The position numbers were made by a program, and so were the translations under genes. From an uncultured Hyphomicrobiales bacterium (GTDB lineage Bacteria > Bacteroidota > Ignavibacteria > Kapaibacteriales > Kapaibacteriaceae): a stretch of 64,000 nt of DNA. The stretch is from NCBI GenBank assembly GCA_964467455.1, contig CAYXQJ010000017.1:6520-70519 (forward strand), read 5' to 3'. A model generated the notes under the pieces. That model saw only the letters and a program-made list of their open reading frames with translations. It ran no database searches and was not told where the DNA came from. Shown in pieces: positions 2,431 through 61,285 of this stretch; the first letter of the stretch is position 1, and each line of letters starts with the position of its first letter.

Positions 2431-2458
2431 GCTGCTTCCGTGCGATACGTGAAATGAA

Positions 2459-3139: not shown

Positions 3140-3159
3140 GGGCTAAATACCCTTTGTTC

Positions 3160-3232: not shown

Positions 3233-3339
3233 TGGCTACGGTACCTACACACACGATTGAAAGGCGGCAGGGCGATTGTCTTGCGACGTACTGGAGAGGA
3301 TAGGAATGACAATCCAGGAACCGCCCTGCCGCACAGCGC

Positions 3340-7697: not shown

Positions 7698-7866
7698 AAA
7701 TTTCTCCTCGCCAGATCTCCACGTCGCGCGGTGCGTCGATTGCGATCCGTGCTGCTGTTTCTTCGTTCTTAGGCCGCCAGAAACCCGACAGTGATACCGT
7801 CACGTTCCGGCCGTCCTGCAATGTGATGACAGCTTCCTCGCCGATGTTGCGTTGAATAATGAGCAC
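7468..7866 (-). CDS. csrA: CsrA-like RNA-binding protein with a long low-complexity C-terminal tail
   Basis: GTG at 7866-7864 with AGGAGGG 5 nt upstream. MLIIQRNIGEEAVI...ARIAIDAPRDVEIWRGEIYERR parallels E. coli CsrA (MLILTRRVGE...[22 protein letters not shown]). The frame runs 75 codons past the conserved core and overlaps the exonuclease gene. Confidence 0.7.
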   Translation of the reverse strand: MLIIQRNIGEEAVITLQDGRNVTVSLSGFWRPKNEETAARIAIDAPRDVEIWRGEIYERRTGRPIPTHDNDGTDGDGGVDAGRLRRFADGDGNGSGGPWGPKPKPKQNRSLGSGYRRAGRRIDIDEPEDGDG

Positions 7867-8562: not shown

Positions 8563-8729
8563 ATGTACGAGGCTGGCCCAACAACGAGTCAAGCCAGTTC
8601 GCGCCGTGGCGCACGCAACACGCACAAATGCCCACGGCCCTAAACACTGTTCCAAAAGCCCTGATGCGGTGGGGCAGGGACCGCACCAGGGGGCCGGCCG
8701 GTTTGGGGCAGCCGGTTTATCGTTTAAGG

Positions 8730-8802
8730 AGCTAGCTGCGGGACTCGAACTCGCAACCTGCCGATTACAGATCGGCCGCTCTACCAATTGAGCTACGCTA
8801 GC
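8730..8802 (-). tRNA. tRNA-Thr(UGU)-like gene with atypical features
   Basis: Hand-folded cloverleaf: acceptor GCTAGCG/AGCTAGC, D arm GCTC-AATTGGTA-GAGC, anticodon arm GCCGA-TCTGTAA-TCGGC, variable loop AGGTT, T arm GCGAG-TTCGAGT-CCCGC. Irregularities are C at position 33, a G7.A66 mismatch and an A52.C62 mismatch. No encoded CCA. Confidence 0.55.
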
Positions 8803-14600: not shown

Positions 14601-15236
14601 GTTCCCGATCCGATCAGTCATGGCATGCTCGAGATCGCTGGCGTTCATGCCCAGCCCCTCGGCGGCCGCCTTGAGTTTGTCCAGCGCGCCGGGGGTTTTG
14701 CCGGCCAGATCGCCCAACGTGTTCCCGAGCAGATATTCCCGCCGCCCCATGCCCTTCGGGATCGCTTTAGTGAGATCGTCGAGCAGGCCGGCGTTCTTTC
14801 CGAGCGTGCCGGCCTTGGTGAGCGCTGAACCACCGAACGACAGCCACGTTGTCGGATCGAGAGCCACTTCCGCGCCAAACCCAGCCAGATCACCCAGATC
14901 CATTCCGGGCTTGTTCTTCCCCAGTAGCCCAGCCGTTTCGAGCAGATCCCGGCCGCCGATCGTCTCATGCGGATCGGTGATGCCCAGCGTGTCGGAGAAG
15001 GGGATCAGGTTGAGGAGTCCGCCGCCGTAGTCGCCGCCGAGCAGTCCGGAGATTGCACCGCGTAGCGCACGCCCGGGCTTGTCCAGCGTTTCACCCACCC
15101 ACTGCAAGCCGGAAGTCAGTCCGCCACCGATCTCGCCAAGAAGTGATTGCTTCTGTTCTTCGGTGAGATATTGAGCTTGAGCGGCGGCGCGTGAGGCCGG
15201 CCCGAGCATGTTTCGGTAGCGGGGGGAGATTGGCAT
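11652..15236 (-). CDS. large virion-associated protein (1194 aa), candidate internal or ejection protein
   Basis: Last and largest gene of the virion operon, after Gly-rich proteins. ATG at 15236-15234. No catalytic motif recognised. Confidence 0.7.
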   Translation of the reverse strand: MPISPRYRNMLGPASRAAAQAQYLTEEQKQSLLGEIGGGLTSGLQWVGETLDKPGRALRGAISGLLGGDYGGGLLNLIPFSDTLGITDPHETIGGRDLLETAGLLGKNKPGMDLGDLAGFGAEVALDPTTWLSFGGSALTKAGTLGKNAGLLDDLTKAIPKGMGRREYLLGNTLGDLAGKTPGALDKLKAAAEGLGMNASDLEHAMTDRIGNLVGWSPFGFGEQNALFGTGKTAQKLARGMDTAENLALYGKYSPIRPLRSLFDHQVRGAMTEPGQKIGMQSTKIERESIRQAREELAPVVEALERSGVFTGENAANNAGEILRYLEESDVGTRWANVPENLKALQPHLDTLKKFGPMIRDLELASGMHSPELDDIIRYFPRERFHFPDANTAYGTGGRVLQTTTPYQKMREGHLRLHGGGTGALQELSLDPAVSGKGRMNRVKGTPLDPEEFAQIREHIVKQYVEPGKIGSMNDAENDAELDGLVRWVANLDPRHAELGIPAFEMNPAKAMLARLEHGHRASGAANAVTDLSADAARMSNSPDLTANIVPIERLLGDAGIGTEQAMQNFVRKMGDSQAVKDLSAAYNTASQKHTAAFEGLFDEYGLIAYDEAIRAGKKPAEAAKEAIEELASVRDVLPDGVFDAAKKSAKELEDLGSVDRFISRNMYVGDDVAADATRYMKSFNAPDEVKSWVKAMDKFTNLFRGSVTAAFPAFHVRNFFSGQYQNYIGGAFDPKAAGPMRYLRPIYDADNLVQGKAISDVLDIPAVKAAGITDAKKATDWVAQQAFANNLSHKSVGISGDILGDTHADLISAMPGLSPARRDLTDVKGMLGAPLPRSWKEANPLNTRGVASNEDVFAPFRAGRNTGHYVESLNRLGPFIAFLKQGMDPAEAARRVKKLQGDYSALTQFERGVSRAVPFYSFTRSTAPYMVQNLIENPGGKMAQTIRAMNDMRGRSTVTPDYIGETASIPAGTAEDGSQRYITGLGLMMEDPLSFMGNGVRGGLLEGASRLNPLIKAPLEWMTGQSFFQKGPQGGRELDDLDPTLGRTVANIKQMVTGEETDFAKPIFNSPATEFIAGNLPVSRILTTVRQMTDPRRSAVEKAINFGTGVKSSLISPAAQEAILRESVEDELKKLGGRDFEITNISNEELEKLGPVERALADLYKGALNDFRKTAKARAKARAEDRAREAVTN

Positions 15237-28534: not shown

Positions 28535-30790
28535 TTATGCCGCTCCTAACGTGGTGATTGTTCCACCGCTGCCACGATACTTGAGAGCGCCACTTTCCAC
28601 GTAGAGGAACCCACCGCCACTCGGGTTGCCTGTAGGTACAGTCGTTGCATCGCCAATGAAAATTCCTCGATCCATCGACTGCCAGTTGGGGGCGCTTCCT
28701 GTCACCATGGCAATGTTCTCGGTGGCCGCTGAGGCGTCGAGGAACAGCATGTAGGGAAGCGAGTCGCCCTCAAATCGTGTATCGCTATCCCGGCCATCTT
28801 CGTTGACAACCAAACCGGCGTCTTGGATCACGAATCGAGCGGTGGACGTTACGCCTGCCACGACATACTTCCAGTTCGATCCATCGAACTCTCTGTAGAT
28901 GTCCTGGTCGGCCCCCTGATAGAGCTTGCACACGTCACCGCCCATCTTCCAGTCGCCGTCGTCGCTCCAAACCTGGACGCTGGTGGCCCCGACTGTCTGC
29001 TGCGGCAGGTAGATACTGCATGCAAAATCAACCGTGCCGCCGCCGCCCGTGTTTGCGAAAGGTTCCAGGTAAAGGTGGTACAGTTCTGGGACGGAACTGG
29101 CTGGCCCCCGCACGTCTCCTTGACCAAAGAAGTTAGCGGCAACACCAACCAGACCAGAACTTCCTAGTCGCACATCGAGTGCTGCGGCGTAGGTAGTAAC
29201 CGCATTAAGAACCACGTCTTCGGATGTCGGCGTTGAGATCTTGCCCTGCAATGCCGAGAAAATACCGAGCCCGCCGCCCGCTCGTGGCCGAACTTCAAAC
29301 TCAAGGCCAGATTCAAAATTACTGACCGACCCCACCGCCACAATGTCCTCTTTGGCATGGATCATTGCCGTGCCAGTCGTGCCACCGATGACTCCACCCG
29401 AGCCGAAGGCGCTACGGAATTTCGAGTAGAAGCCAGAGCGAGCCACGGTGAGTGATGGCGTTGGTCCACTGTCCCATACAACCGAACCGCCGTAGATCGT
29501 GAAGGTCTGTCCTGCGCCCGTCGTGCCACGCCACACATTCTCAAAGGTGCCTGTCGTCGCGGACGTGATCGTGGCAATTTTTAGCCGCTGGCCCGTCCGC
29601 TGGGCGCTGGTAACGATCTCGTGCCCCACCATGTCGGCCGTGAACGTTGTGCCGCTGCCGGTAAAGTTCACCGAGTTGTTTGTGCAGCTGATCGTGCCGG
29701 TCGTGTAGTCGCCAGTTGAACTATACAAGTTGGTGTCGCTTGCTGTACCGGCACCGGCGGAGATGCCCACGTTCAGGCCGTTCCGCACGTCCATGCCCAC
29801 AGCCGGCGACGTAGTGCCCTGCCCGAAGCGATCGTTCACTTGGTCATAGGCGGAGAGCGTACCGAGGATGATCTTGCCTTTAGTGCCGTGTGACGTGCTG
29901 AGGAGCGTGAGGTTATTGCCGCTGGCTGTTCCACCCGTGAGCGACTGACCGCCGCTGCGGCCGGCCAGTAGGGCATAGTGAGTATGAACGTCGCCCGTGG
30001 TGAGGTTGGCAAGCGAGTTGTGATCCACACCAGCAGGTGCCACAGAGAGCGTGCTGCCGCTGATCGTGAGCGATGAATCCGTGGCCAAGAAGGCAAACTC
30101 GCCTGTCGGTGAATCATCCCAGAAGACGATTCTGTCGGCGTTCGGATCGGACAGGCTGGTGTTGGCCAGGTCGTCCATTGTGGCCGAGCCAGAGACGACA
30201 CCCGTTGCCGCCTTGAGCACACCACTCAATCCAGTGATCGTAAGTCCTGCGAATGTCGGCGACGAGCCCGTACCAATGTTTTGCGGCGTGCTGAGGGTGA
30301 TCGATCCGTCGCCGTCATCGGATACGCTGACTTGGTTCGACGTGCCGGCTACCCAGCTTGCAAGATTAGATACGCTCGCCAGGTTCTTGCTGCCGTCGGT
30401 AGCCATCAGCCGGCTGGCAGTGAGTCCAGACAGATTCAGCCCAGTGAATGTTGGACTGTCTGCTGTACGGATTCCCTGGATCGTGTTGAGCGTGGTGGTG
30501 GAGATCGAGAGGCTGGTGCCGAGCGACAGGAAGGCGAATTCGCCCGTGGGGGAATCATCCCAGAAGACAATGCGATCCGCGTTGGGATCCGAGAGACTGG
30601 TATTGGCAAGATCGTCAAGTGTGAAGGACGAGAGCGAGACGTTGAGGTTGTTGCCGCTGATGGAGATGCCGGTGTTCGGCGTCAGATAGTCGAAGGCATT
30701 GTCGGACTCGTCCCAGAACACGATGCGATCCGCCCCAGGGTCGGCGAGACCGGGTTCGAGATCGACAAGTGTGGGGAATCCGTGGAGCAT
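28535..30790 (-). CDS. tail fibre protein with a triplicated N-terminal module (751 aa)
   Basis: Three copies of the ADRIVFWD(D/E)S...F(A/D)(F/Y)L module. The G/S/T-rich beta-type sequence is typical of fibres. Confidence 0.7.
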   Translation of the reverse strand: MLHGFPTLVDLEPGLADPGADRIVFWDESDNAFDYLTPNTGISISGNNLNVSLSSFTLDDLANTSLSDPNADRIVFWDDSPTGEFAFLSLGTSLSISTTTLNTIQGIRTADSPTFTGLNLSGLTASRLMATDGSKNLASVSNLASWVAGTSNQVSVSDDGDGSITLSTPQNIGTGSSPTFAGLTITGLSGVLKAATGVVSGSATMDDLANTSLSDPNADRIVFWDDSPTGEFAFLATDSSLTISGSTLSVAPAGVDHNSLANLTTGDVHTHYALLAGRSGGQSLTGGTASGNNLTLLSTSHGTKGKIILGTLSAYDQVNDRFGQGTTSPAVGMDVRNGLNVGISAGAGTASDTNLYSSTGDYTTGTISCTNNSVNFTGSGTTFTADMVGHEIVTSAQRTGQRLKIATITSATTGTFENVWRGTTGAGQTFTIYGGSVVWDSGPTPSLTVARSGFYSKFRSAFGSGGVIGGTTGTAMIHAKEDIVAVGSVSNFESGLEFEVRPRAGGGLGIFSALQGKISTPTSEDVVLNAVTTYAAALDVRLGSSGLVGVAANFFGQGDVRGPASSVPELYHLYLEPFANTGGGGTVDFACSIYLPQQTVGATSVQVWSDDGDWKMGGDVCKLYQGADQDIYREFDGSNWKYVVAGVTSTARFVIQDAGLVVNEDGRDSDTRFEGDSLPYMLFLDASAATENIAMVTGSAPNWQSMDRGIFIGDATTVPTGNPSGGGFLYVESGALKYRGSGGTITTLGAA

Positions 30791-44340: not shown

Positions 44341-44380
44341 TTTTTGACTCATCAAAATTGCATTTTTGACTCATCAAAAT
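44341..44380. promoter_or_regulatory. two identical 18-bp palindromic operator-like sites
   Basis: TTTTTGACTCATCAAAAT at 44341-44358 and 44363-44380 (22-bp period). Each contains TTTTGA-ctca-TCAAAA and a TTGACT hexamer. Confidence 0.6.
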
Positions 44381-44426
44381 CTCATCACAACCTATTACCC
44401 CTCATACACTTGCAAGGTTTCAGCAT

Positions 44427-44600
44427 AGTGGTGGGGGCTGGTGTGGAATTGTGGGGGAATAGTGGTGGGGCAGGGGGAGAATAGGGGGCTGGTGCGGTGG
44501 TGGTGTGCGGTGTGGTGTGGCTGGCATCATGCCAGTGGTGGGGCAGTGGTGGGCTGGTGGGCTGGCAGTGAGCTCGGCTGGCTGGCTGGCAGTGGTGGGG
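44427..44600 (+). repeat. G-rich decamer repeats with G-quadruplex potential
   Basis: AGTGGTGGG(G/C) at 44427, 44461, 44534, 44545 and 44591. G4-5 runs at 44433, 44453, 44467, 44473 and 44484. Palindrome CTGGCATcATGCCAG at 44521-44535. Confidence 0.8.
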
Positions 44601-44631
44601 CTGGAATTGAATCGGAATAGGTCACGAATAG
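44457..44631. repeat. GAATAG iteron-like hexamers (4 copies)
   Basis: GAATAG at 44457, 44479, 44615 and 44626. Spacings of 22 and 11 bp within the pairs. Confidence 0.7.
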
Positions 44632-44651: not shown

Positions 44652-44909
44652 ATGGGTGGTGGTGGGAAGCGTAGGCGGGTTGTGAAAGCGCGCAGGGGGT
44701 TGGCGGCAATGCCGGCCGAGCGGTTGGCGGAAGTGGCACGGGCTGGCGGGCTGGCTGCGGCGGCAAGCTTGGGTGAGCTCGGCCGGCAGGAGCGGGCGCG
44801 CGCAGGCGGGCTGGCAATTGCTGGTCGGCCGCGGCGGCCGGGCGGCGGGCGGCCGAAGGGGAGTAGGAATAAGGTGAAGCCGGACGAGCTCGATCAGGCT
44901 AGCGAGTAG
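44652..44909 (+). CDS. small basic protein with AT-hook-like GRP motifs (85 aa)
   Basis: ATG at 44652 with GGAG 8 nt upstream (alternative ATG at 44637). GGGGKRRRVVKARR...GRPRRPGGGRPKGSRNK. The upstream part of tracked ORF 44505.. is the G-rich repeat. Confidence 0.5.
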   Translation: MGGGGKRRRVVKARRGLAAMPAERLAEVARAGGLAAAASLGELGRQERARAGGLAIAGRPRRPGGGRPKGSRNKVKPDELDQASE

Positions 44910-44917
44910 CTGGCAGT

Positions 44918-45034
44918 CTATTCGGGGGCTGTTGGTGGGCTATTCCGGGCCCGTTGGCTGGGCTGGCGGGAAAGAATTTTGGGAGTATTTGAGTGCTGTT
45001 TTTAGGCTATTCGGTGGCTATTCTTGGCCTATTC
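44918..45034. repeat. CTATTC iteron-like hexamers (5 copies), inverse orientation to the GAATAG set
   Basis: CTATTC at 44918, 44940, 45007, 45018 and 45029. The last three have an exact 11-bp period (GGCTATTCGGT GGCTATTCTTG GCCTATTCTGA). Confidence 0.75.
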
Positions 45035-45142
45035 TGAAAATATAAGCTTGCAATGGGGACGGACGGACGATAGATTTTCGGTGTGGGCTGGCGAGCACTA
45101 CCGCCGGCCGAGAAGTAGCACTAGAGAATGGGAGATTGGACA

Positions 45143-45388
45143 ATGGCCAAGAATATTGAATTCGCTTGGCGGTACGAACAATGGCAGCGCGATTGTTTGG
45201 ATGAGTACAACGAAAGATTCTGCGAAAATCGGGAATACTGTGAACCGCCCGAGCATGATGTAGACCCAGGCCTGATTGTCGAATTCGGTGAAGACGGGTC
45301 CGCCTATCCGCACGGCATTGGTGGCACAAGCCATATTCCCGATGCCGTGAAGCCATGGCGAGAATCAGAGTGGTTTGTAGCACGGTAA
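45143..45388 (+). CDS. hypothetical protein (81 aa)
   Basis: ATG at 45143, 6 nt after GGGAGAT (MAKNIEFAWRYEQW). Confidence 0.55.
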   Translation: MAKNIEFAWRYEQWQRDCLDEYNERFCENREYCEPPEHDVDPGLIVEFGEDGSAYPHGIGGTSHIPDAVKPWRESEWFVAR

Positions 45389-45401
45389 CGCGCACCGATC
45401 T

Positions 45402-45432
45402 AAGCGCCGTTGGGGTTGCGGCGCTTTGTTCG
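45402..45432 (+). terminator. Rho-independent-type terminator
   Basis: 8-bp stem AAGCGCCG (45402-45409) / CGGCGCTT (45419-45426) followed by TGTTCGG. Confidence 0.5.
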
Positions 45433-45505
45433 GTATGCGTTTACGATCGATCGACGGATTTAGGCGCGCATCACTACTCGCGCCGCCACTATGGGAGATC
45501 AGACA

Positions 45506-46156
45506 ATGGCCAGTTTGTTCGAGCGGTATCGGCCGCGCGTATGGGGTGATGTAGTTGGGCAGGACAAAGCGGTGGGGATTGTTGAGAGATTGCGCGGTGG
45601 GGCTGGGCTGGGTGGCCGAGCGTTTTGGCTGGCTGGGCCCAGTGGCACGGGGAAGACCACGATTGCGAAGCTGATTGCGGCCGAGCTGGCGGACGATTAT
45701 GCGACGGAGGAAATCGTCGGGCGCGATGTTTGCGCTGCGGATTTTGCGCGATGGGCGCGGCAATTTAGGATTCGGCCGATCGGCGATAAGGCGGGCTGGG
45801 CGATTGTCGTTAATGAAGCGCACGGTGTGCGCAGGGATTGTATTGAGAGATTTTTAGACTTGCTGGAAACATTGCCGCCATTTGTGGTGTTTGTCTTCAC
45901 GACGACGAATGATGGGGCTGACCGGTTATTCGACGAACAAGCTGACGCGCCGGCTTTCGCTAGTCGGTGTGTCAGTTTGCCGATGGCGCGCCGAGATCTG
46001 GCGAAAGCTTTCGCCGAGCGCGCCCGGGAGATCGCGCAGGCGGAAGGATTGGACGGCCAGCCCGTGGAAGCTTACGTAAAGCTTGCGCAGAAGTATAAGA
46101 ATAACTTCCGCGCAATGCTGGGGGAGATTGAAAACGGCGGAATGCTGCCGGATTAG
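45506..46156 (+). CDS. AAA+ ATPase, clamp-loader (RFC small subunit / DNA polymerase III gamma-tau) like
   Basis: LFERYRPRVWGDVVGQ, Walker A GPSGTGKTT, Walker B IVVNEAH, and the SRC motif (FASRCVSL) typical of clamp loaders. ATG at 45506, 6 nt after GGGAGAT. Confidence 0.75.
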   Translation: MASLFERYRPRVWGDVVGQDKAVGIVERLRGGAGLGGRAFWLAGPSGTGKTTIAKLIAAELADDYATEEIVGRDVCAADFARWARQFRIRPIGDKAGWAIVVNEAHGVRRDCIERFLDLLETLPPFVVFVFTTTNDGADRLFDEQADAPAFASRCVSLPMARRDLAKAFAERAREIAQAEGLDGQPVEAYVKLAQKYKNNFRAMLGEIENGGMLPD

Positions 46157-46285
46157 GTAGGGAATAGGGCCCGATTGTGCGCCGCGGGGTGGTAGCGCGG
46201 CGCCATGTCGGTTCCTATTGGGGTGGACAATTGCGGGCCGCGCGCGTCACTACCGCGCCGGGCCGCCACTATGGGAGATCAGACA

Positions 46286-46537
46286 ATGGCGCGAATTGAA
46301 ATGGCGCTGCACTACCCATTAGGTGGTAACACAATCAAAGTTTTTCGTGACAGCCCACTATTCGATGGGCGCAGGTGGTGGCAGCTCGGGGATAGCGCGC
46401 TGCGGGAATTGTACGTTTGCACTTATGAGCTCGGGCCCGTCGATGATCGAGGCGAATATGATGGCTCGATTCGGCAATGGGCAGCGCAGGCGCGCGAGTT
46501 GGTGGACCGCCATAAGGGTTGTGTTTTTGTGTATTAA
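46286..46537 (+). CDS. hypothetical protein (83 aa)
   Basis: ATG at 46286 in a leader identical to that of 45506 (a 29-bp exact repeat). Confidence 0.55.
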   Translation: MARIEMALHYPLGGNTIKVFRDSPLFDGRRWWQLGDSALRELYVCTYELGPVDDRGEYDGSIRQWAAQARELVDRHKGCVFVY

Positions 46538-46581
46538 CGGGCCCGATCGGGCCGCCACTACTACTACGGGGAGATCGAGCG

Positions 46582-46833
46582 ATGAAAAGCGCGGCAGAAT
46601 CGAGATTGCGCGGCGCGGAGCTGGTTGAGCACTTGAATCGAGCACTTGCCAGCGGGCGCACGGTTTGGATTTTATCCCATCTTCGCGCGTGGGAAGTATC
46701 AGCGAAGACAGCGGCGAAGTGGGAAGCCAGCGGGCGCCCTATCTTCAAGGCGAGCGCGGATGGCGCGAACGCGCTTATGGGCCAGGGCAAGGACTACGTG
46801 TGCATCGATTGGTCGGGCTGGCGGATTGTGTAG
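46582..46833 (+). CDS. hypothetical protein (83 aa)
   Basis: ATG at 46582, 6 nt after GGGGAGAT. Confidence 0.55.
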   Translation: MKSAAESRLRGAELVEHLNRALASGRTVWILSHLRAWEVSAKTAAKWEASGRPIFKASADGANALMGQGKDYVCIDWSGWRIV

Positions 46834-46848
46834 GTGACAGGGCCCGTC

Positions 46849-46890
46849 GCGCGCCGATCTGCCAGGCGGCGCGCCATCGGTTTCTGTTTC
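46849..46890 (+). terminator. GC hairpin plus T-rich stretch
   Basis: GCGCGCCG (46849-46856) / CGGCGCGC (46867-46874), then GGTTTCTGTTTC. Confidence 0.45.
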
Positions 46891-46917
46891 GGGGAGCACT
46901 ACTGAGGGAGATTTACC

Positions 46918-47154
46918 ATGTCGATCGAAGCATATAGCGCGAACGAAGTACGCGAGGGGCTGGAGCTGCCGGCCGATTGCCATTGTGAATGCGACGGCTG
47001 CCACGCGGAGGCGCCATGCTGGGTGGACCTGCGCGAGCCTGGTGAGTGGGCGTATTGCGAGAAGTGCTGGACAAAAATCGCGTGGAAGCTCGAACGGCGC
47101 GCGGCACAGCGGATTACAGCTCGCGGGTTCCGCGACTTTGAATATCTGGACTAG
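46918..47154 (+). CDS. Cys-rich putative zinc-binding protein (78 aa)
   Basis: CHCECDGCH...C...CEKC. Preceded by the cassette. Confidence 0.55.
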   Translation: MSIEAYSANEVREGLELPADCHCECDGCHAEAPCWVDLREPGEWAYCEKCWTKIAWKLERRAAQRITARGFRDFEYLD

Positions 47155-47171
47155 AAACCTTCCCGCCAACG

Positions 47172-47192
47172 GGCCGCGAGGGGCGCGCGGCC
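47172..47192 (+). terminator. GC hairpin after the gene
   Basis: GGCCGCG (47172-47178) / CGCGGCC (47186-47192). GGTTTCC lies 13 nt downstream. Confidence 0.35.
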
Positions 47193-47238
47193 TGCTGCGG
47201 GGCGGTTTCCAGCAGCACTACAAAGGGAGATCCGAACA

Positions 47239-47487
47239 ATGGCACGATTCAACGAAGGAGATCGCGTCGAACTAATCAGCGCGACGATGGTTTACGGGCC
47301 GCCATTCGACTTGAAGACGAAGCAACCGGCGCCACAATTCGGCCGGCAGTGGCGAATGGTTGGCGAGATCGGCACAGTCGAGCGCGTTATCGGCGGCCGG
47401 CTGCTGGTGCGATTTGAGAACGGCGGCAAGTATGCAGGGGCCTGGGTGGACGTGGATAGGGTCCGGGCGGTTGCGGCTGCAAAATAA
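47239..47487 (+). CDS. hypothetical protein (82 aa)
   Basis: Preceded by the cassette (MARFNEGDRVELI). Confidence 0.55.
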   Translation: MARFNEGDRVELISATMVYGPPFDLKTKQPAPQFGRQWRMVGEIGTVERVIGGRLLVRFENGGKYAGAWVDVDRVRAVAAAK

Positions 47488-47574
47488 TTAGCTTGCAATA
47501 GCCCCGCAGCACGATAGGATTAGGGGCGAGGGTTGGTTGAGCACTACTTACCACGAACGAAGGGAGATCATGCG

Positions 47575-47757
47575 ATGCGATTGACGATCACGATGGACCT
47601 GGACAATGCCGCGTTTGAGGATGGAGGCGGCCAGGAAATCACGCGGATATTGACAGACCTATGCCGCAAATTGCCCGACGAAATCTGCGAAGGCAATCGG
47701 GCACTGTTCGACATCAACGGCAACCGCGTAGGCACGGCCGAGATCGTCCAAGGCTAA
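47575..47757 (+). CDS. hypothetical protein (60 aa)
   Basis: ATG at 47575, 6 nt after GGGAGAT (MRLTITMDLDNAAFEDGGGQEITRIL). Confidence 0.5.
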   Translation: MRLTITMDLDNAAFEDGGGQEITRILTDLCRKLPDEICEGNRALFDINGNRVGTAEIVQG

Positions 47758-47761
47758 CGCG

Positions 47762-47801
47762 ATCCCGCGGAGGGCCGCCACGGTGGCCCCGAGCATGGGT
47801 T
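47762..47801 (+). terminator. conserved post-gene hairpin element, copy 1
   Basis: ATCCCGCGGAGGGCCGCCA..GGCCCCGAGCATGG directly after the stop, followed by GGTTTCGTTTTGC. A second copy is at 49251. Confidence 0.45.
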
Positions 47802-47835
47802 TCGTTTTGCTGAGCACTACCAAAGGGAGAACACG

Positions 47836-48237
47836 ATGACGATTCAGGAATTTATTGAGCAGGCAAACTTAACGATGAGCGTCGAATATGCGGCCAGCAA
47901 CCCACACATGGAGGAGGATCGCAAGCATCCGATGGATCACTGGGCGTGCCGGATCACTGACGGCGCGAACGTGATGGAGCTCGTTTTCTCCAAGGGCCAG
48001 GGCCATCACAGCGAAGAACCGCAGCTCGACGAGGTTCTAGATTGTCTGGCAAGCGATGCGGCCAGCATTCAGGACGGCGCCAGTTTCGAGGATTGGGCCG
48101 CCGATCTTGGGTACGACACGGACAGCCGCAAGGCTGAGCGCACGTATCAGGCCGTGAAGGATCAGGCCGAGAAGTTGCGCGCGTTGCTGGGCGATGACAA
48201 CTACGAGCGTTTACTGTGGGAGATCGAGCGACTGTAA
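47836..48237 (+). CDS. hypothetical protein (133 aa)
   Basis: Preceded by the cassette. The SFEDWAADLGYDTDSRKAERTYQAV pattern recalls a widespread small phage protein family that I cannot name. Confidence 0.6.
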   Translation: MTIQEFIEQANLTMSVEYAASNPHMEEDRKHPMDHWACRITDGANVMELVFSKGQGHHSEEPQLDEVLDCLASDAASIQDGASFEDWAADLGYDTDSRKAERTYQAVKDQAEKLRALLGDDNYERLLWEIERL

Positions 48238-48252
48238 ACGCCACCCAGCCGC

Positions 48253-48282
48253 GGCGCCTCACCTGCAAGGGATCGAGGCGCC
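48253..48282 (+). terminator. GC hairpin after the gene
   Basis: GGCGCCTC (48253-48260) / GAGGCGCC (48275-48282), 14-nt loop. No clear U tract. Confidence 0.35.
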
Positions 48283-48317
48283 GAAACTGGTTCGCGTTTC
48301 CTGCGGAACACCACACC

Positions 48318-48713
48318 ATGCCACTACACCCACGATTTACCGCCGCTGACTTGCTCGCGCCGATCGGCAAACTTGTCTACTTGCGCCTACAACGGCGCGG
48401 GGGCAAGAGTTGCGGCGGTGTGGATGCCAGCGAAGCGAACGGCAGCGAGTGGGTAGCATTCGAGGGGACCGTGACGGACGTTGACGCGGCCGGCCGCGTG
48501 CGAGTCGAGCCAGTGGCCGGCGAGGGGTTCATCTGGGGCAGTGCCGCCAGTTTTCCGCTGGCGGCCGATATTGACGCAGCACTACTCCGGCCCGAGGCCA
48601 ATGCTCGCCTGGCAGGGCTGGGATTAAAAAAGAGCGAGCCGGGAGATCGAGGGGAAAGAGAAGATGGCACCGTATTCGGACGCCCAATTGAAGGAGATCA
48701 AGGCCAACATTAA
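48318..48713 (+). CDS. hypothetical protein (131 aa)
   Basis: ATG at 48318 (MPLHPRFTAADL). No cassette. Its 3' end overlaps the next gene by 50 nt. Confidence 0.4.
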   Translation: MPLHPRFTAADLLAPIGKLVYLRLQRRGGKSCGGVDASEANGSEWVAFEGTVTDVDAAGRVRVEPVAGEGFIWGSAASFPLAADIDAALLRPEANARLAGLGLKKSEPGDRGEREDGTVFGRPIEGDQGQH

Positions 48714-48864
48714 GAAGATGGCCGCCAATAAGCCGCATTTGGTGCGCGAGCGAGTTGGGTACTACCTGGACTTGGCGACGGACGCGCACGAGCGGAACGA
48801 CGACGCGACTTGCTACGAGTGGATACAGCACGCGAAGGAGCAGGCGCATCATCGGCACGGGTAA
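48664..48864 (+). CDS. hypothetical protein (66 aa)
   Basis: ATG preceded by GGGAGATCGAGGGGAAAGAGAAG. Confidence 0.5.
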   Translation: MAPYSDAQLKEIKANIKKMAANKPHLVRERVGYYLDLATDAHERNDDATCYEWIQHAKEQAHHRHG

Positions 48865-48912
48865 GACGGGCAAGAGTTGAGCACTACCAAAGCACTACGG
48901 GAGATTGAAACC

Positions 48913-49245
48913 ATGAACACGAACACGACGAGCGAGGCGAGCGCCGCCACTACGCCGATAACGATAACCGGCAGGGCGCTGACACCCTACGCGCTGCCGA
49001 TGGTGCACCTCGGCGGGACTTCGCGGGGCCGACTGATTCAACAACGAACGATGGCCGCCCATGCCGTCGAAATGGCCGCCAAGGCCGTTGAAATGACCGC
49101 ACCACTGCTGAAAGACTTTGTTTTATATGAAGACGCTACGGCCCGGCTGGAAGTGGCCAGGATCGCCACGGCGGCGCGATTGAACACGCTGGGCGAGATC
49201 GCACGGCAGTTGATGGCCGAGGCCGAGGCAATCGAGAAGCAGTAA
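48913..49245 (+). CDS. hypothetical protein (110 aa)
   Basis: ATG at 48913, 7 nt after GGGAGAT. Double CACTAC box upstream. Confidence 0.55.
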   Translation: MNTNTTSEASAATTPITITGRALTPYALPMVHLGGTSRGRLIQQRTMAAHAVEMAAKAVEMTAPLLKDFVLYEDATARLEVARIATAARLNTLGEIARQLMAEAEAIEKQ

Positions 49246-49250
49246 ACCCC

Positions 49251-49290
49251 ATCCCGCGGAGGGCCGCCAAGCGGCCCCGAGCATGGATTG
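49251..49290 (+). terminator. conserved post-gene hairpin element, copy 2
   Basis: ATCCCGCGGAGGGCCGCCAAGCGGCCCCGAGCATGG. Perfect stem GGGCCGC / GCGGCCC. Confidence 0.45.
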
Positions 49291-49344
49291 GGTTGACACA
49301 GCCCCGGTGTTCAGGGGCAGGACGCTTTAGACTGGGAGATTGAC

Positions 49345-49698
49345 ATGACGACGAAAACGACAAAGGCCAAGGTAACACTGGCTGAGCGTGAGGATGTCGC
49401 GCGCGAATACGGCTTTGATGGAGTGTTAGCAATCGTGGATCACGAGACGCACGGCCGGCTACTTATCGCTGACGGATACGGAGGAGAGGGCCAGCCTCGC
49501 GGCGGTTGCGTGCGATGGGAGCACGGTGGCGTGTGGCAGCTCAAGTCGAACGACACGCTCCAGTCGCTCCGAAACGGCGAGTGGAACGACTGTGCGACAT
49601 TGCTTGATGCCGTGTGCCACGGCGAAGACCGATCGCGGCCCGTGCTGGACTTCTCCGGCAACGCGATCGCTAACGTAGCAAAAGCCGCGGGCCTGTAG
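49345..49698 (+). CDS. hypothetical protein (117 aa)
   Basis: ATG 4 nt after GGGAGAT. Confidence 0.55.
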   Translation: MTTKTTKAKVTLAEREDVAREYGFDGVLAIVDHETHGRLLIADGYGGEGQPRGGCVRWEHGGVWQLKSNDTLQSLRNGEWNDCATLLDAVCHGEDRSRPVLDFSGNAIANVAKAAGL

Positions 49699-49744
49699 TC
49701 CTTTTTTGTACCGACAACAGCACTACTCAAACGGGAGATCGAGG

Positions 49745-50122
49745 ATGGGAACGAATCACACGCAAGGCGAGTGGAAAGGGCAGGCTGGGCCAGATGATGC
49801 AATCTGGATCAAGGCCGAAGGATTCGGGCCGCCAGGAACGCCACTGGCCAAGGTTTACTTGCGGGCTGTTGAGGGGCACTACCCGCAGTCGTCGTATGCC
49901 GAGCGAGACGCTAACGCGATGCTGATCGAGAAGGCGCCCGCCATGTACGAAAAGCTTATCGCGGTCGTCGATGATCTCGATTGGGATCTAGACGACTACG
50001 ACACCCCATACAACATGGATGACGTAATTCATCTTGCCGAGCATCTTCGTTCGATTGCTAGCTGGGTGGTAAAGGAATTGCGCCCGGCCGTCGAGGGGAA
50101 GGCGGTGCAGCATGACGCCTAG
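49745..50122 (+). CDS. hypothetical protein (125 aa)
   Basis: ATG at 49745, 5 nt after GGGAGAT (MGTNHTQGEWKG). Confidence 0.55.
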   Translation: MGTNHTQGEWKGQAGPDDAIWIKAEGFGPPGTPLAKVYLRAVEGHYPQSSYAERDANAMLIEKAPAMYEKLIAVVDDLDWDLDDYDTPYNMDDVIHLAEHLRSIASWVVKELRPAVEGKAVQHDA

Positions 50123-50707: not shown

Positions 50708-50907
50708 CACGCGAACAAGCGATTGCACAACTTGCAGGATCAGAGCGAGGTCAGCGTGCGCTCGCTCACTTACTAAACTGGCTCGACGACAGTGGCGTTG
50801 GGCTCGATTCATACAATCAAGCCGCCGTGTTCACTTTGCTCGAAAGCGCGTGGCTCAATCCAGGCAGCACGCGCGATATGATGCGTGCCGCCATTGACAC
50901 ACCGTAA
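50704..50907 (+). CDS. hypothetical protein (67 aa)
   Basis: ATGA overlap at 50704-50707. Confidence 0.5.
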   Translation: MTREQAIAQLAGSERGQRALAHLLNWLDDSGVGLDSYNQAAVFTLLESAWLNPGSTRDMMRAAIDTP

Positions 50908-51051
50908 TCAGGACACACCCCGACCCCGGGCTAGCGTTGGTAGTGCTCGCGAAAGGGCGATCGGAAATTTCTGCGGGTTCTGTCCCGCCGATCTCCCGCC
51001 GATTCGCCCACCGCCCGGGGTCGGGTTTTTCTCATTGATGGAAGGGTTGCC

Positions 51052-57772: not shown

Positions 57773-58015
57773 TTACCCCAGGTGGGGATTTGGTGGCGGC
57801 TGGGCAGTTGATTCCGGCGGAACCGTGTCCACTCGCACGGCAGTCGGCTCCCCCTTTACTCGCCGCACCCGGACGGCACGGTTGGCCTCGATCGCGAGCC
57901 GCACCTGGCTCGAACCTACCTGCCCGACATGAATGCGAACGGTGTGGGCGTCAGGAGTCCCCTCACCAACCGTGAATTCGACGATCTCGCCATAGCGGCG
58001 TTCGATGACGTACAA
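57773..58015 (-). CDS. CsrA-like RNA-binding protein, second copy (80 aa)
   Basis: TTG at 58015-58013 with GGAGG 7 nt upstream gives MYVIERRYGEIVEF...HTVRIHVGQVGSSQVRLAIEANRAVRVRRV, collinear with CsrA. The tracked ORF starts 32 codons earlier. Confidence 0.6.
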   Translation of the reverse strand: MYVIERRYGEIVEFTVGEGTPDAHTVRIHVGQVGSSQVRLAIEANRAVRVRRVKGEPTAVRVDTVPPESTAQPPPNPHLG

Positions 58016-58498
58016 CCCAGGGCCTCCAAAATGCCCAGCATCGCGAGGGCATCGTGCCCGGGTGGCTTCCGTGAGGAGTCGGCCGGCTTCTATTACACTG
58101 CCGGCGACCATGAAATAAGGACTTAAGTTCTGTTTTACAAGGCATTACACCCGACTGTAATGATGCAAGTGGTTTGATGGTATCAACTTGCGTCAAAAAA
58201 TGGCCCCTCATTACACCTTACAGTTCCAGAGAGGCATATATATATACCCCCCTCCCCATACTGACATTTGTTCACCTACTGTACTGATGTACTAATGGGG
58301 GAACTTGTCTATATATGTGTGTTCTCTGTAATAGTGTAATACCTACTACTACTTACTTACTTACTACTTACTACTTACTACTAACTACTACTACTACTAC
58401 TACTTATATCTACTGCCATCGCCACAAGTCGGATTACAAAGATGCGCAATGGTGGTGTAATGGGGTGTAATCGGAAGACAGGAGGCATGGGCAGTCAG
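58016..58498. promoter_or_regulatory. AT-rich repeat-rich intergenic region (candidate origin and/or promoter region)
   Basis: CATTACACC at 58143 and 58209, facing GGTGTAAT(G/C) at 58454 and 58464 and GTGTAAT at 58334. ATATATATATA at about 58236. Microsatellite at 58343-58406. Confidence 0.55.
58343..58406. repeat. (TAC)n/(TACT)n microsatellite
   Basis: ctactactacttacttacttactacttactacttactactaactactactactactactta. Confidence 0.9.
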
Positions 58499-61285
58499 CT
58501 AGTAGGAGTCGATTTCTGTGTGAACGATGGGGGATTTGGTCTCCCCAATCAACGCATCGATCGACGCCTGCGGGATCGTGATGCCCCTGGCTGCGTGCGA
58601 GAGTGCCGTCACGGTTCGCTTCGCCCCTTTGATACGCAGGAGGATTTGGGAGATGTCCTGCTCGGCGTATGGGGTGCGCGACAGGAGCTCGCGGCGAATG
58701 CTGCCGTGAGAGAAGAACATTGCCGGGGGATCGAGGTGATCCATGATCCGAATGCCGTTCGAACGAAGTATCTGATCCCTGGCGCCAACATCGCCCGTGT
58801 TGGTTGGCATGGCCGCCCCGCTAATGACGTCGCTGATTGTCACCTTCTTCCCACCCGGCATGATGATTGTGGTTTCGTAGATCGTACGCATTAGCCGCTC
58901 CTCGTCGCTCTCCTCTTGAGCGGACAGATCGCGCTCCCCCAGCCACAGCCGCAGGTTGCCGGTCGTCTCCTCGAGCGTCATGCCATACGCACAGCCGATC
59001 AGCGAGGCGGGTGCCGAGAAGGATTCCACGATCCGGCGATCTGTGGCCAAAGGTACCTGGCGGATCTTGTCGGCCATTTCGATCGCTTTGGGGGCGTTCC
59101 GGATGGCCACGGCGAGTAGCTTCTGCCCCAAAGCTGTCAGTTCAGCCTTGGGTGGCAGGGTAAGCTTCGAAGGGCTGCCTGGGGGCAGGTTCTCGAGATC
59201 GAGCATGATGAACCGGTTCCGGTCGGCAGCGGCATGCAGGCCGAGTTCGATGGCCCCCACCCAGGCGATATGCTGCAGGCCGAAGCTGATGCCCCGCTGG
59301 TTCGACGTCCCGCGGAGCGACTTGCCGCCGCGGCCGGCCGTGCGGAGCATGTTGAGAATGCCTACCCGGTGCTTGTCGTCTTCGAACTCGTCCGTCAGGA
59401 TCACCTTGGCCGTGTTCCGGATGGCGTGGCGAATGCCGGCTTCGGTGGACTTCGAGTTGAAGCAGGCCAGTTTGCCGAACATCACCTGCAGGCAGTCCTC
59501 GAGCAGCATGCTCTTGCCCGATCCGGACGTTCCGGTGACGCCGACTTGCGGCCGCCAGCCCCACAGTGTTTGAACCCAGGTGGCCATTACGAGGCCGGCG
59601 ATGAGGCTCGGGTTGCTCGGATGGCGCCAGTTGTCCCAGCGGCCGAACAACTGGGTGGCTTCTTCCGCGACGGTCTCGCACCACCCCGGGGACGCCGCGA
59701 GCTGCAGTAGGCTCGCCAGGTGGGCATGGTCGTACCATGGCTCGGCAGCAAAATCGACACGGCGCCCGTGCACAGCCGGCGCTGAAAACCGCTCGAGCGT
59801 CTTGCCGTCCCACACGTCGCACGACTTATGGCCGACGAGCACGGTGTCCTCTTTGACGTGCCACACCCCAGCCCCGATGGCCGGCTCTCGATCGAGGAAC
59901 TCCCGGCCGCAGAGATCGGCCAGGGCCGTGCGAACGTCGTCGATGTGGAACTTCCCGTTGCCAGCCTCCTCGCCGCGCTTAAGGATGAATCGATCGACGA
60001 GCTCGTTCCCCATGTCGCGCACGGCGTGCACGTACGTGTAGTGCTGCGGATCCTTGATGCGCGACTTCTTGCACAGGGCCTCGGAATAGATCTCGAGATC
60101 GCCGGTGTCTTCGAACTGCCCGGTGGCGATCACCTTGAGGCACTGCAGGATGGCCTCGTGCTTGCTGAGCTTCTGGCTTTCGTCGTCGATGGCGATGGCC
60201 TCGGTGGCGTCCGCCAGCGCGAGCAAGTCCTTAAAAGTGCGCCGTTCCCCCTCTATTTCCTCCCCGAAATAATCCCGGATATCCTTGCCGTGCTTCGGCT
60301 CGATGGGGTACGGCAGTTGGATGTTCTTCACCGCCGCAGCCACGTTGATCACGGCCTGCACCCACACCTTCGCGGCTGCCTGGCCCGGCTCGTCGGCGTC
60401 CATGCAGATGTAGACTTGCTTGCCGGCGAAGTGCTGGATCCATTCCGGCCGCGGGTGGTAGCTACAACTGCCTGTGGTGATGACGACATGATCGGTGTCG
60501 AGCCATTCGGGGATCATCGTCTGCATGGTGAGCATGTCTGGCAGACCCTCGCAGATCCAGACGACTCGAGCATTCTGCAGGTGCTTCAAGGCGTGGACGT
60601 TCATCATCCCGGGGGGCAGGCCGGGTGTGACCAGGGTGATCGTCTTGAGCGGTTCGCTGTCCTTCCCCTTGCCCTGGTATTTCAGCACGCTCTCGCCCGT
60701 GCTGTTTACTCCTTGGTAGCTATGCACGTCGCCGTCCAGTAGCTTTTCGCCGAACGACGGGAAGACGATGAGGGCCTGTTGTCGATCGTGCGGGGCATTG
60801 GCCGGGTAGTGGGCCCCAGTACCACCGCACTTGAGGATCGCGGCGGCTTTGATCGGCGGCTTCTTGGCCGCGTAGCCGACGAGCATGCCAGGCGAGGCCG
60901 GGAATAGCGTAACCTTGTCGGTGGCCACACTGTCGGCCGACTTCGGCAGTTCGAACTTGAGATCGGCTGCGAATTTCCGGCGCGCGTCACGCCAGGTCGG
61001 GCCGTAGCCGCCGACGTTCTTTGCCGCGAACTCGAAGATCGACTGGCTAACGGCATCGCCGCCGAAGTCTTTGTAGCGGCCGCGCAGCCCGTCACCGCCG
61101 ACGTTGATCGCCGCCGAGGGGTTGCTGTCCTCGCGGCCGTAGGCGTGGCACTTTAGCCAGCCGGAAATGTTCGGCGTGCCGTTGCGATCGAATCGCACGC
61201 CGGCCGAGGCGTAGAAGTCTTCGATATTGGTAAGGGCAAGAAGCTCCCGATGGGCCTCATGCCATTGTGTCTTTACGTCAGCCAT
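58499..61285 (-). CDS. bifunctional DNA primase / SF3 helicase (TOPRIM plus P4/D5-type ATPase)
   Basis: KCHAYGREDSNPSAAIN (primase zinc-finger-like), TOPRIM VWICEGLPDMLT and YICMDADEPGQAAA, Walker A GTSGSGKS, Walker B VILTDEFED. Confidence 0.85.
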   Translation of the reverse strand: MADVKTQWHEAHRELLALTNIEDFYASAGVRFDRNGTPNISGWLKCHAYGREDSNPSAAINVGGDGLRGRYKDFGGDAVSQSIFEFAAKNVGGYGPTWRDARRKFAADLKFELPKSADSVATDKVTLFPASPGMLVGYAAKKPPIKAAAILKCGGTGAHYPANAPHDRQQALIVFPSFGEKLLDGDVHSYQGVNSTGESVLKYQGKGKDSEPLKTITLVTPGLPPGMMNVHALKHLQNARVVWICEGLPDMLTMQTMIPEWLDTDHVVITTGSCSYHPRPEWIQHFAGKQVYICMDADEPGQAAAKVWVQAVINVAAAVKNIQLPYPIEPKHGKDIRDYFGEEIEGERRTFKDLLALADATEAIAIDDESQKLSKHEAILQCLKVIATGQFEDTGDLEIYSEALCKKSRIKDPQHYTYVHAVRDMGNELVDRFILKRGEEAGNGKFHIDDVRTALADLCGREFLDREPAIGAGVWHVKEDTVLVGHKSCDVWDGKTLERFSAPAVHGRRVDFAAEPWYDHAHLASLLQLAASPGWCETVAEEATQLFGRWDNWRHPSNPSLIAGLVMATWVQTLWGWRPQVGVTGTSGSGKSMLLEDCLQVMFGKLACFNSKSTEAGIRHAIRNTAKVILTDEFEDDKHRVGILNMLRTAGRGGKSLRGTSNQRGISFGLQHIAWVGAIELGLHAAADRNRFIMLDLENLPPGSPSKLTLPPKAELTALGQKLLAVAIRNAPKAIEMADKIRQVPLATDRRIVESFSAPASLIGCAYGMTLEETTGNLRLWLGERDLSAQEESDEERLMRTIYETTIIMPGGKKVTISDVISGAAMPTNTGDVGARDQILRSNGIRIMDHLDPPAMFFSHGSIRRELLSRTPYAEQDISQILLRIKGAKRTVTALSHAARGITIPQASIDALIGETKSPIVHTEIDSY

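Follow-up and report, generated by a model that had tools for sequence, protein, structure and literature searches.

The leader cassette of the early gene array

The 64-kb window (the whole stretch of DNA analysed here, from contig CAYXQJ010000017.1) derives from a novel tailed phage of about 61% GC. Its rightward early array, genes g0-g13 (44652-50122), features a leader module upstream of about 12 small genes, composed of a stem-loop at the preceding stop codon, a short CACTAC-type box (AGCACTAC in its strict form), an extended Shine-Dalgarno sequence (SD), GGGAGAT(C/T), and the ATG. This cassette, whose modular order had been described in a first-pass annotation of the same DNA, is real, strongly non-random and strand-specific. 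Both box and extended SD are specific to the early array, as shown by their enrichment in early spacers and by the SD counts in early and other genes.

The AGCACTAC sequence has 12 matches in the window, vs. 0.54 expected, a number reached in none of 100 shuffles; nine of them lie on the + strand between 45094 and 49726. The early spacers, 1,129 nt in total, contain 12 copies of a looser box, [AG][GC]CACTA[CTG], and the early coding DNA, 3,706 nt in total, contains three (Fisher p = 5.6e-6). The early intergenic density of this looser box, 10.6 per kb, is about 100-fold that of the remaining window (0.106 per kb, both strands). The box is strand-specific: in 12 of the 15 early-region copies it is contained in the spacer directly 5' of the SD, and no box precedes the minus-strand genes, as already noticed in the first pass. 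GGGAGAT is matched 28 times in the window (8.3 expected). When located within 16 nt of a start codon, GGGAGA[TA] is found at 12 of 14 early genes and at none of 58 other genes (p = 6e-12), which feature an SD of the plain GGAG type. Beyond 50.1 kb genes overlap and the cassette ends.

The features of the array are listed below; all are on the + strand.

45048-45076 (+): P1, σ70-type promoter; TTGCAA 45048-45053, 17-nt spacer, TAGATT 45071-45076, read directly and aligned with P2
45086-45109 (+): 5'-proximal hairpin, arms GGCUGGCG and CGCCGGCC; its 8-nt loop AGCACUAC is box 1a (45094-45101); -17 kcal/mol, z = -3.4
45117-45145 (+): g1 leader; box AGCACTAG 45117-45124, SD GGGAGAT 45130-45136, ATG 45143
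45387-45441 (+): long stem-loop after the g1 stop; 23-nt arms, 83% complementary, z = -2.2
45463-45484 (+): g2 leader hairpin, arms GGCGCG and CGCGCC; the loop (..AUCACUAC..) holds a box, 45470-45477
45463-45508 (+): g2 leader as a whole; second box GCCACTAT 45485-45492, SD 45493-45499, ATG 45506
46163-46219 (+): long stem-loop after the g2 stop; 24-nt arms
46233-46266 (+): g3 leader hairpin; loop UCACUAC (box 46246-46253); -24 kcal/mol, z = -2.2
46233-46288 (+): g3 leader as a whole; second box GCCACTAT 46265-46272, SD 46273-46279, ATG 46286
46540-46584 (+): g4 leader; short hairpin GGGCCCGATCGGGCC, SD 46569-46575, ATG 46582
46554-46567 (+): g4 box GCCACTAC, extended to CACTACTACTAC
46836-46920 (+): stem-loop after the g4 stop (about 46836-46888) and g5 leader; box AGCACTAC 46895-46902, SD 46906-46912, ATG 46918
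47154-47241 (+): stem-loop after the g5 stop (GAAACC...GGUUUC, 47154-47209) and g6 leader; box 47214-47221, SD 47225-47231, ATG 47239
47493-47520 (+): P2, σ70-type promoter; TTGCAA 47493-47498, 16-nt spacer, TAGGAT 47515-47520
47493-47577 (+): P2 with the g7 leader behind it; box 47540-47547, SD 47562-47568, ATG 47575
47752-47838 (+): stem-loop after the g7 stop (twin of 49244-49296) and g8 leader; box 47813-47820, SD GGGAGAA 47825-47831, ATG 47836
48236-48299 (+): long stem-loop after the g8 stop, followed by g9; 25-nt arms, z = -3.8
48318-48713 (+): g9, 131 aa, without SD; its ATG-CCACTAC beginning follows a C/A-rich stretch, and the box, SD and start of g10 overlap with it
48578-48666 (+): g10 leader, within the 3' end of g9; box 48578-48585, SD 48641-48647, ATG 48664
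48880-48915 (+): g11 leader; tandem boxes 48880-48887 and 48891-48898, SD 48899-48905, ATG 48913
49244-49347 (+): stem-loop after the g11 stop (49244-49296, z = -2.2) and g12 leader, without box; second hairpin, SD 49334-49340, ATG 49345
49719-49747 (+): g13 leader; box 49719-49726, SD 49733-49739, ATG 49745
50907-51039 (+): structured intergenic RNA; 13-bp closing stem (50919-50931 with 51013-51025), then UUUUUCU 51026-51032

When 14 boxes are aligned, information is confined to the positions A/G, G/C, C, A, C, T, A and C/T, being near zero upstream of -2 relative to CACTA and absent downstream until the SD: the element is therefore 8 nt long, and not about 20. Variants are found at 45117 (AGCACTAG), 45471 and 46247 (TCACTAC) and 46555 (CCACTAC), and four leaders carry tandem boxes, 11, 15, 19 and 23 nt apart. 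All box coordinates of the first-pass annotation hold, and so do its spacings, 0-14 nt from box to SD (values 0, 0, 0-1, 0, 3, 3, 4, 5, 6 and 14) and 4-7 nt from SD to ATG. Its statement that the unit precedes nearly every gene is valid for about 12 early genes and has three exceptions: g12 (49345) has an SD and no box, g9 (48318-48713) lacks an SD, and the g10 box, contained within g9, is located 63 nt before its SD.

A number of other identities were considered for the box and rejected. As a -10 element of σ54, ECF or σ70 type, it has no partner element at any fixed spacing. Pairing with 16S rRNA is limited to ACUAC (the complement of the 790 loop is GGACUACC), at a site implausible for mRNA binding. 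The hairpins are too short, and lack core sites, for integron attC-like sites. GGGCCGCCAC, taken as a possible additional repeat, is found mostly in coding copies.

Stem-loops and hairpins

The GC-rich hairpins originally reported after the stop codons are real, but each is only the upper part of a longer, interrupted stem, whose arms measure 17-25 nt (about 20-25 bp, G·U pairs included) and which begins at the stop codon or directly after it. Similarly, the GGTTTC or T-rich stretch, which had been listed as the next element of the unit, is present, but corresponds for the most part to the 3' arm of the lower stem, where it pairs, partly by G·U, with GAAACC or ACAGGG beside the stop codon (e.g. 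GAAACC...GGUUUC, 47154-47209). It is not a terminator U-tract; among the stem-loops, a fair U-tract is found in the g1 hairpin only. The presence of G·U pairs indicates that these stem-loops would be functional in + strand RNA only. The stem-loops after g7 and g11 are topped by two near-identical copies of CCCGCGGAGGGCCGCCA..GGCCCCGAGCATGG, at 47762-47800 and 49251-49290. Boxes can also be loops themselves: the upstream one in each of the g1, g2 and g3 leaders closes a GC hairpin, as a loop of 7-10 nt.

Location in hairpin loops and overlap with SDs are frequent features of CsrA sites, and binding by two phage CsrA-like proteins had been proposed in the first pass. One of the two is confirmed as a family member (7468-7866, minus strand; PF02599, 34 bits vs. 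a cut-off of 27, with a long C-terminal extension), while the other (57773-58111, minus strand) scores 19 bits, under the threshold. GGGAGAU contains GGA, making a CsrA site at the SD possible; the box, A(G/U)(C/U)ACUA(C/U), lacks the GGA core. Moreover, each leader offers a single GGA site, the SD, while CsrA dimers normally bridge two, and the CsrA-like genes are located in minus-strand modules, far from the array. It is thus very improbable, the least probable of the explanations considered here, that the box is the binding site of these proteins.

Promoters and polymerases

Two σ70-type promoters, P1 before g1 and P2 before g7, share a near-identical context, AAAWAWTAGCTTGCAAT-N16/17-TAGRWT. 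P1 reads AAAATATAAGCTTGCAAT-N16-TAGATT and P2 AAAATAATTAGCTTGCAAT-N15-TAGGAT, with 17 and 16 nt between the hexamers. At both, the first box is found about 20 nt downstream of the -10 hexamer, i.e. at about +11 to +13 of the predicted transcript. The -35 windows of the other boxes contain nothing promoter-like, P1 and P2 being the only σ70-like sequences among about 13 cassettes. The P1 -35 is abutted by five GGCTATTC-type repeats (44915-45040), which look like operator or activator sites; the last three are spaced by about 10-11 nt. CTATT(C/T) repeats are found also upstream of the g2 homologues of two relatives, L145 and L144; in the latter, they directly precede a σ70-type promoter, the g2 homologue having a canonical TTGACC-17-TATAGT promoter in the equivalent place. 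Given the two promoters upstream of g1 and g7, the array is most simply seen as a pair of host-transcribed operons, where the boxes would lie inside transcribed leaders.

A different arrangement had been suggested by the first-pass annotation, where the boxes were likened to T7-group promoter cores and each small gene was seen as a terminator-promoter-RBS unit (RBS, ribosome binding site). More generally, the box might be a short promoter element recognized by a modified polymerase or by one foreign to the host: a single-subunit RNA polymerase, or a phage sigma-like factor that requires no more than an 8-bp element, as T4 gp55 does with TATAAATA. CCACTAT-GGGAGAT (45486, 46266) does resemble T7 CACTATAGGGAGA, and the order of hairpin and box before each gene recalls the T7 class II region. 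Furthermore, a Sigma70_r2/r4 (ECF-like) protein is encoded upstream of the g2 homologue in L138 (5554-6222), a prophage-like relative beside RND efflux genes; no window counterpart of it was found. A protein identical to that of g2 is recorded on a 71,258-bp NCBI contig, about 7.2 kb of which is outside the window: a polymerase gene could be located there, all gene searches being confined to the 64-kb window.

Conservation, however, ends at 8 nt, and a box-to-GGGAGA distance of 0-14 nt, already recognized in the first pass as arguing against a strict T7-type promoter and here confirmed as an unfixed register, would place the start inside or after the SD in most cassettes, if the box had a -10-like role. 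The tandem pairs and the boxes in hairpin loops also speak against a promoter, σ70-type promoters are already present before g1 and g7, and the compensated G·U stems described below point to a function in RNA. As for the polymerase, the PF00940 profile has no match in any window ORF (open reading frame) above 600 aa, and no PHROG RNA polymerase match was obtained. The T7-type motif A/B/C set is absent from window ORFs of at least 300 aa and DxDGD from those of at least 150 aa; no sigma factor is present among 50 window ORFs scanned. The T7 reading is not supported: the element measures 8 nt and is variable in register, its copies occur in tandem and in loops, and no polymerase gene was found among the ORFs searched, so that three of the four defining features are lacking or without a positive result. 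A separate promoter for each small gene is not found either, and a terminator scan of the DNA performed no better than on shuffled sequences (17 found, 13.4 expected). Overall, a promoter role of the box, for whichever polymerase, is regarded as quite unlikely.

Even less likely is a role of the loop-box hairpins as nut-like sites, in the manner of λ N-type processive antitermination: the host polymerase would read through the stem-loops once the box, in the nascent RNA, had been bound by a phage protein, small and rich in arginine. The conserved-loop hairpin starts a few nt from the predicted P1 start site, many strong stem-loops are contained in the presumed operons, and a candidate is available in g0 (44652-44909), which is basic, with an arginine-rich N-terminus (GKRRRVVKARRG). 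Yet a nut site is needed once per operon, while boxes precede nearly every gene and are mostly outside hairpins. A U-tract on one stem-loop only leaves little to antiterminate, and no boxA-like element was seen. The g0 protein has no family match, and arginine-rich ORFs are common at 61% GC.

Conservation of the leaders

The sole close relative found is L141, a 1,205-bp contig from ENA; its g2 protein and that of the window are identical at 67%. L141 keeps the P1 -10 hexamer TAGATT, AGCACTAG and GGGAGAT. Its 5' hairpin presents the loop AGUACUAC on a stem in which bases are changed, yet still pair; in the g2 leader, a hairpin with arms GGCGCGC and GCGCGCC around the loop AGCACUAU is found in the same place, together with GGGAGAT. 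Between the two sequences, the stem-loop after g2 shows double changes of compensatory type at two pairs, and at two more a one-sided G·U change: since G·U pairs exist in + strand RNA only, this argues for a function in RNA. The two g1 leaders are about 80% identical but precede unrelated ORFs, which, in this single case, places the joint at the ATG.

The box is therefore conserved, along with its hairpins, in L141, while CACTAC has no match in more distant relatives (50-62% identity). Repeated leaders of their own are found in a number of relatives. In L140 and L145, a hairpin formed by CUGCCCUA..UAGGGCAG is followed by CCCAAAC/CCCUAUC-GGGAGCGAA; L125 and L126 repeat CCCTACAAAGGATC; L122 features GGAACTTGCC, paired with an upstream complement in one leader, and L123 a repeated 30-nt hairpin. 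In many relatives, the leaders of g2 homologues are C/A-rich and G-poor directly 5' of the SD. Leader architecture is thus a family trait, while its sequence is phage-specific.

Wider pattern searches returned chance matches. A 22-base P1-leader pattern is absent from IMG/VR and has one unrelated match (L142) in JGI metagenomes; AGCACTAC-N(0-14)-GGGAGAT gave single chance matches only in IMG/VR. The stricter AGCACTAY..GGGAGAT..ATG has 86 matches, and a single contig, L190 (IMGVR_UViG_3300031673_001301, 829-3600), features four copies. This phage contig was rejected as a relative: tblastx with the window was empty, its GC content is 51%, and its motif, GCAGCACTACTGGGAGA, which precedes four small coiled-coil paralogues, is coding sequence there, specifying the C-terminus (AALLGD/E) of tandem paralogues that overlap the start of the following one, and is best seen as a chance match amplified by paralogy.

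Repetition of this kind may also arise without any specific reader of the box. One module, made of stem-loop, efficient G-poor leader and strong SD, could have been copied and homogenised by duplication or recombination, its copies serving mainly as homology patches for ORF shuffling, like the promoter-early stem-loops (PeSLs) of T4, with CACTAC hitch-hiking and keeping the SD unpaired. A 51-nt stretch common to the g2 and g3 leaders (88% identity), the duplicate promoters P1 and P2, the twin hairpins at 47762 and 49251, the leader joined to an unrelated ORF in L141, the repeated leaders proper to each relative and the G-poor composition upstream of the SD are all in line with this explanation. 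On the other side, the 8-mer is exact in nine copies whose flanks are fully diverged on both sides, unlike what would be left by a recent duplication of whole cassettes. A relative at 67% protein identity has kept the loop-box hairpins on altered stems, and exact complements of both elements are contained in one structured RNA, described in the next section. Hitch-hiking of the box is accordingly held to be rather unlikely.

A structured RNA at the end of the array

The intergenic region 50908-51051, which closes the cassette array, has a + strand fold with z = -4.4, and its 13-bp stem followed by UUUUUCU is one of a small number of sequences matching a canonical terminator in the + strand of the early array. 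Within it, GUAGUGCU (50940-50947) is the exact complement of AGCACUAC, and GAUCUCCC (50990-50997), mostly unpaired in the minimum free energy fold, is the exact complement of GGGAGAUC (also given as GGGAGATC); the two segments are 43 nt apart. By a post hoc calculation, such a pair within 100 nt is expected 3.7e-3 times on the + strand. Complementarity extends up to 12 nt (GAGCACUACCAA, GCGAGCACUACC) with the g1, g8 and g11 boxes, and up to 10 nt (CGGGAGAUCG) with the g0, g10 and g13 SDs. A comparable segment is found in L140, where UUCGCUCCC, the exact complement of the SD GGGAGCGAA of that contig, is single-stranded and located directly 5' of a U-tailed terminator, after four cassette genes. 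An Rfam scan found tRNA only, with no C4 or other family match for the candidate RNA. For the genes flanking it, homologues are limited to one 971-bp contig, which ends before the RNA, and the ORF at 51052 has no homologues.

On the basis of this complementarity, the structured RNA at 50907-51039 may be an RBS-masking antisense regulator, and the RNA at 50.9-51.04 kb is the most concrete candidate reader of the box.

Proposed role of the cassette

An RNA-level signal, mentioned as an alternative in the first-pass annotation, provides the best fit to the compensated G·U stems and to the presentation of boxes in loops. The explanation preferred here, considered probable, if with moderate confidence, is that box and GGGAGAU(C/U) are + strand RNA elements and not promoters, forming a start-associated leader cassette. 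Host RNA polymerase would start at P1 and P2, giving polycistronic transcripts of the small early genes. These would be punctuated at the stop codons by the long interrupted stem-loops, probably acting as processing or 3'-stabilising structures, or else as leaky terminators. Each gene would then be re-addressed to the ribosome by a common, G-poor and unstructured leader, composed of A(G/U)(C/U)ACUA(C/U), GGGAGAU(C/U) and AUG. Since the tag is confined to early genes, these may form one translational regulon, which a single trans-acting factor could switch as a whole. The best candidate for this factor in the window is the terminator-ended RNA at 50907-51039. The cassette may also double as a recombination joint for the exchange of ORFs.

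A more specific form of this proposal is a two-part RNA 'zip code', CACUAC plus GGGAGAUC. The RNA at 50907-51039, derived from the 3' untranslated region of the operon that holds the early genes, would accumulate, pair with about 12 leaders, by loop contacts at the box and by masking of the SD, and shut early translation as a timer; the reverse start-associated sequence of Cluster K1 mycobacteriophages (see below) and the anti-SD of L140 would be instances of the same device. This form is speculative and judged rather improbable.

A number of observations weigh against the RNA-level explanation, or against its antisense part. P1 and P2 match the σ70 consensus at 8 of 12 positions only, and were spotted by eye, both being missed by a stricter scan. 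The box is common to one close relative only, a 1.2-kb contig, so that two leaders carry the whole case for its conservation. An 8-nt sequence could become exactly repeated by recent cassette duplication or gene conversion, with no specific reader involved, and 7.2 kb of the genome lies outside the window. As to the antisense RNA, the finding was made post hoc. The 5'-3' order of anti-box and anti-SD is wrong for colinear pairing with one leader, and duplex energies with the candidate RNA do not set early leaders apart from controls, in a GC-rich genome. In L125, where a repeated leader is present, no antisense copy is found within 14.5 kb.

Genomic context

Structural genes, coding for terminase large subunit, portal, major capsid protein and tail-like proteins, are on the minus strand at 11-41 kb. 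Other modules of the window encode a RecD2-like helicase, a RecT-like protein, an exonuclease, a primase, a serine recombinase, HNH nucleases and a tRNA-Thr. The g2 gene (45506-46156) codes for an AAA ATPase with 2,722 homologues; as some of these are annotated as Pirellulales, the host is probably a Planctomycete (Planctomycetota), a phylum for which almost no phage biology is available. The region 44.5-51.5 kb has no blastn match among INPHARED phages. The helicase, used as a query against GTDB genomes, matched only distant Solobacterium RecD2 proteins, and the primase found no relative in IMG/VR. Exact matches to the helicase, primase and g16 proteins of the window are not on record. The phage is present in the samples SRR15237804 and SRR15237806.

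In the virion module, the ORF at 11652-15236 (minus strand; 1,194 aa) has no match in Pfam, PHROGs or PDB sequences and contains no RNA polymerase motifs; it probably encodes an internal or ejection protein. Within the 5' part of the RecD2-like helicase gene, at 2536-2657, 9.9 tandem copies of a 12-nt unit, CCGCCGCCGACT, encode a repeated peptide. The tRNA-Thr (UGU; 8728-8802, minus strand) adjoins an HNH endonuclease gene; a T-box-like use of this tRNA was considered and dropped. A (CTA)n/(CTACTTA)n microsatellite (58340-58414), in an AT-rich noncoding gap directly 3' of the primase gene, could mark an origin or a packaging-related region.

To the left of the array, a direct repeat, TTTTTGACTCATCAAAAT, is found twice at 44342-44385, beside a possible leftward promoter (TTGCAA...TAGGTT, about 44380-44415), which looks like a divergent control region. 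It is followed by a + strand G-rich tract (44420-44610), containing five copies of (A/C)AGTGGTGGGG; two of them hold ATAGTGG, the complement of the CCACTAT box variant. This tract is either upstream of, or inside, the arginine-rich ORF g0, annotated as 44652-44909, with a start at 44529 according to gene callers.

Comparison with known systems

In its organization, the cassette may be seen as an analogue of two known systems, the SAS (start-associated sequence) elements of mycobacteriophages with their extended form (ESAS) and the PeSLs of T4-type phages, being by sequence a member of neither. SAS and ESAS were described in Cluster K mycobacteriophages (Pope et al. 2011, PMC3203893), and their function was still without a test in 2025 (PMC12699233). 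Like the element of the window, they are short asymmetric repeats with an SD core, conserved beyond the extent of rRNA pairing, located 3-7 nt before the ATG in 11-19 copies. They have one orientation, are confined to the non-structural half of the genome, precede genes of different families and, in about half of the copies, have an inverted repeat directly upstream. The window shows the same behavior in RBS position, asymmetry, conservation beyond rRNA pairing, single orientation, restriction to the early region (12 of 14 vs. 0 of 58 genes) and junction to an unrelated ORF in L141. The SAS sequence itself, GGGATAGGAGCCC with up to two mismatches, is not found: the window has GGGAGAT(C/T), sharing the GGAG core alone. 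Further differences are the bipartite nature of the window element, with its variable spacer, and the host phylum. The ESAS departures were found inconsistent with RNA pairing, and DNA binding was favoured (Pope et al., PMC3203893); the inverted repeats of the window, in contrast, are backed as RNA by compensatory and G·U changes.

Each Cluster K1 mycobacteriophage also features a single reverse-orientation SAS away from gene starts (Pope et al., PMC3203893). In Anaya (L226, JF704106) it is found at 29871-29883 (about 59870-59882 in the record), within the 385 noncoding nt that separate gp96 from gp97 and with a canonical terminator about 150 nt upstream of it, and parallels the antisense copy of the window.

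PeSLs are mobile regulatory cassettes (Arbiol et al. 2010, PMC2839356; Comeau et al. 2014, PMC4122927). As in the window, the small ORFan genes of a plastic early region are separated by a recurrent combination of stem-loop and expression signal, which serves as a homology patch for the swapping of unrelated ORFs; in the window, such a swap is seen in one case, the g1 gene of L141. In contrast to the window, where only 2 cassettes out of about 13 come with a σ70-type promoter and what is repeated is box plus SD, every PeSL contains a σ70 early promoter.

The array can also be compared with T7. The early genes of T7 are separated by RNase III processing hairpins; similarly, in the window interrupted stems of about 20-25 bp directly follow early genes of a presumed host-transcribed polycistronic RNA, and cleavage, here a proposal, would produce free leaders and 3' hairpins. 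The two sets are not similar in sequence. T7-group promoters, as the window cassettes, consist of CACTA(C/T) followed by GGGAGA, and are intergenic, co-directional and located before small genes. They differ from the window element in size (about 23 nt, conserved from -17 to +6, vs. 8 nt), in register, variable in the window, and in the presence of an AT-rich -17 to -13 region and of a specificity region; in the window, moreover, GGGAGAT is at SD distance from the ATG. The combination CACTA-GGGAGA should therefore not be taken as a T7-type promoter when GGGAGA stands at SD distance from a start codon.

Regulators acting at translation starts provide a further parallel. The c4 RNA of P1 and P7 is a structured RNA, processed from the operon of its own target, with two short complementary segments; P22 sar is likewise an RBS-masking antisense RNA, and T4 RegA is a protein analogue, with regulon-wide repression at early translation-initiation regions. 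In all, one phage factor recognizes a short sequence at the translation start region, as proposed for the candidate RNA of the window. With respect to c4, this RNA would have about 12 targets instead of one, its blocks are not colinear with them, and no Rfam C4 match is present.

Start-associated phage repeats have been described since 2011, with no mechanism shown. To these, the present case adds RNA-level evidence, in the form of compensated stems and loop presentation, a bipartite early-gene tag and a candidate cognate antisense RNA. If the antisense proposal were true, it would provide the first mechanism for SAS-type elements, a testable general mechanism of early-gene shut-off and a compact, orthogonal module for translation control; if false, the cassette would still be a clear case of modular leaders acting, as PeSLs do, as joints for ORF shuffling.

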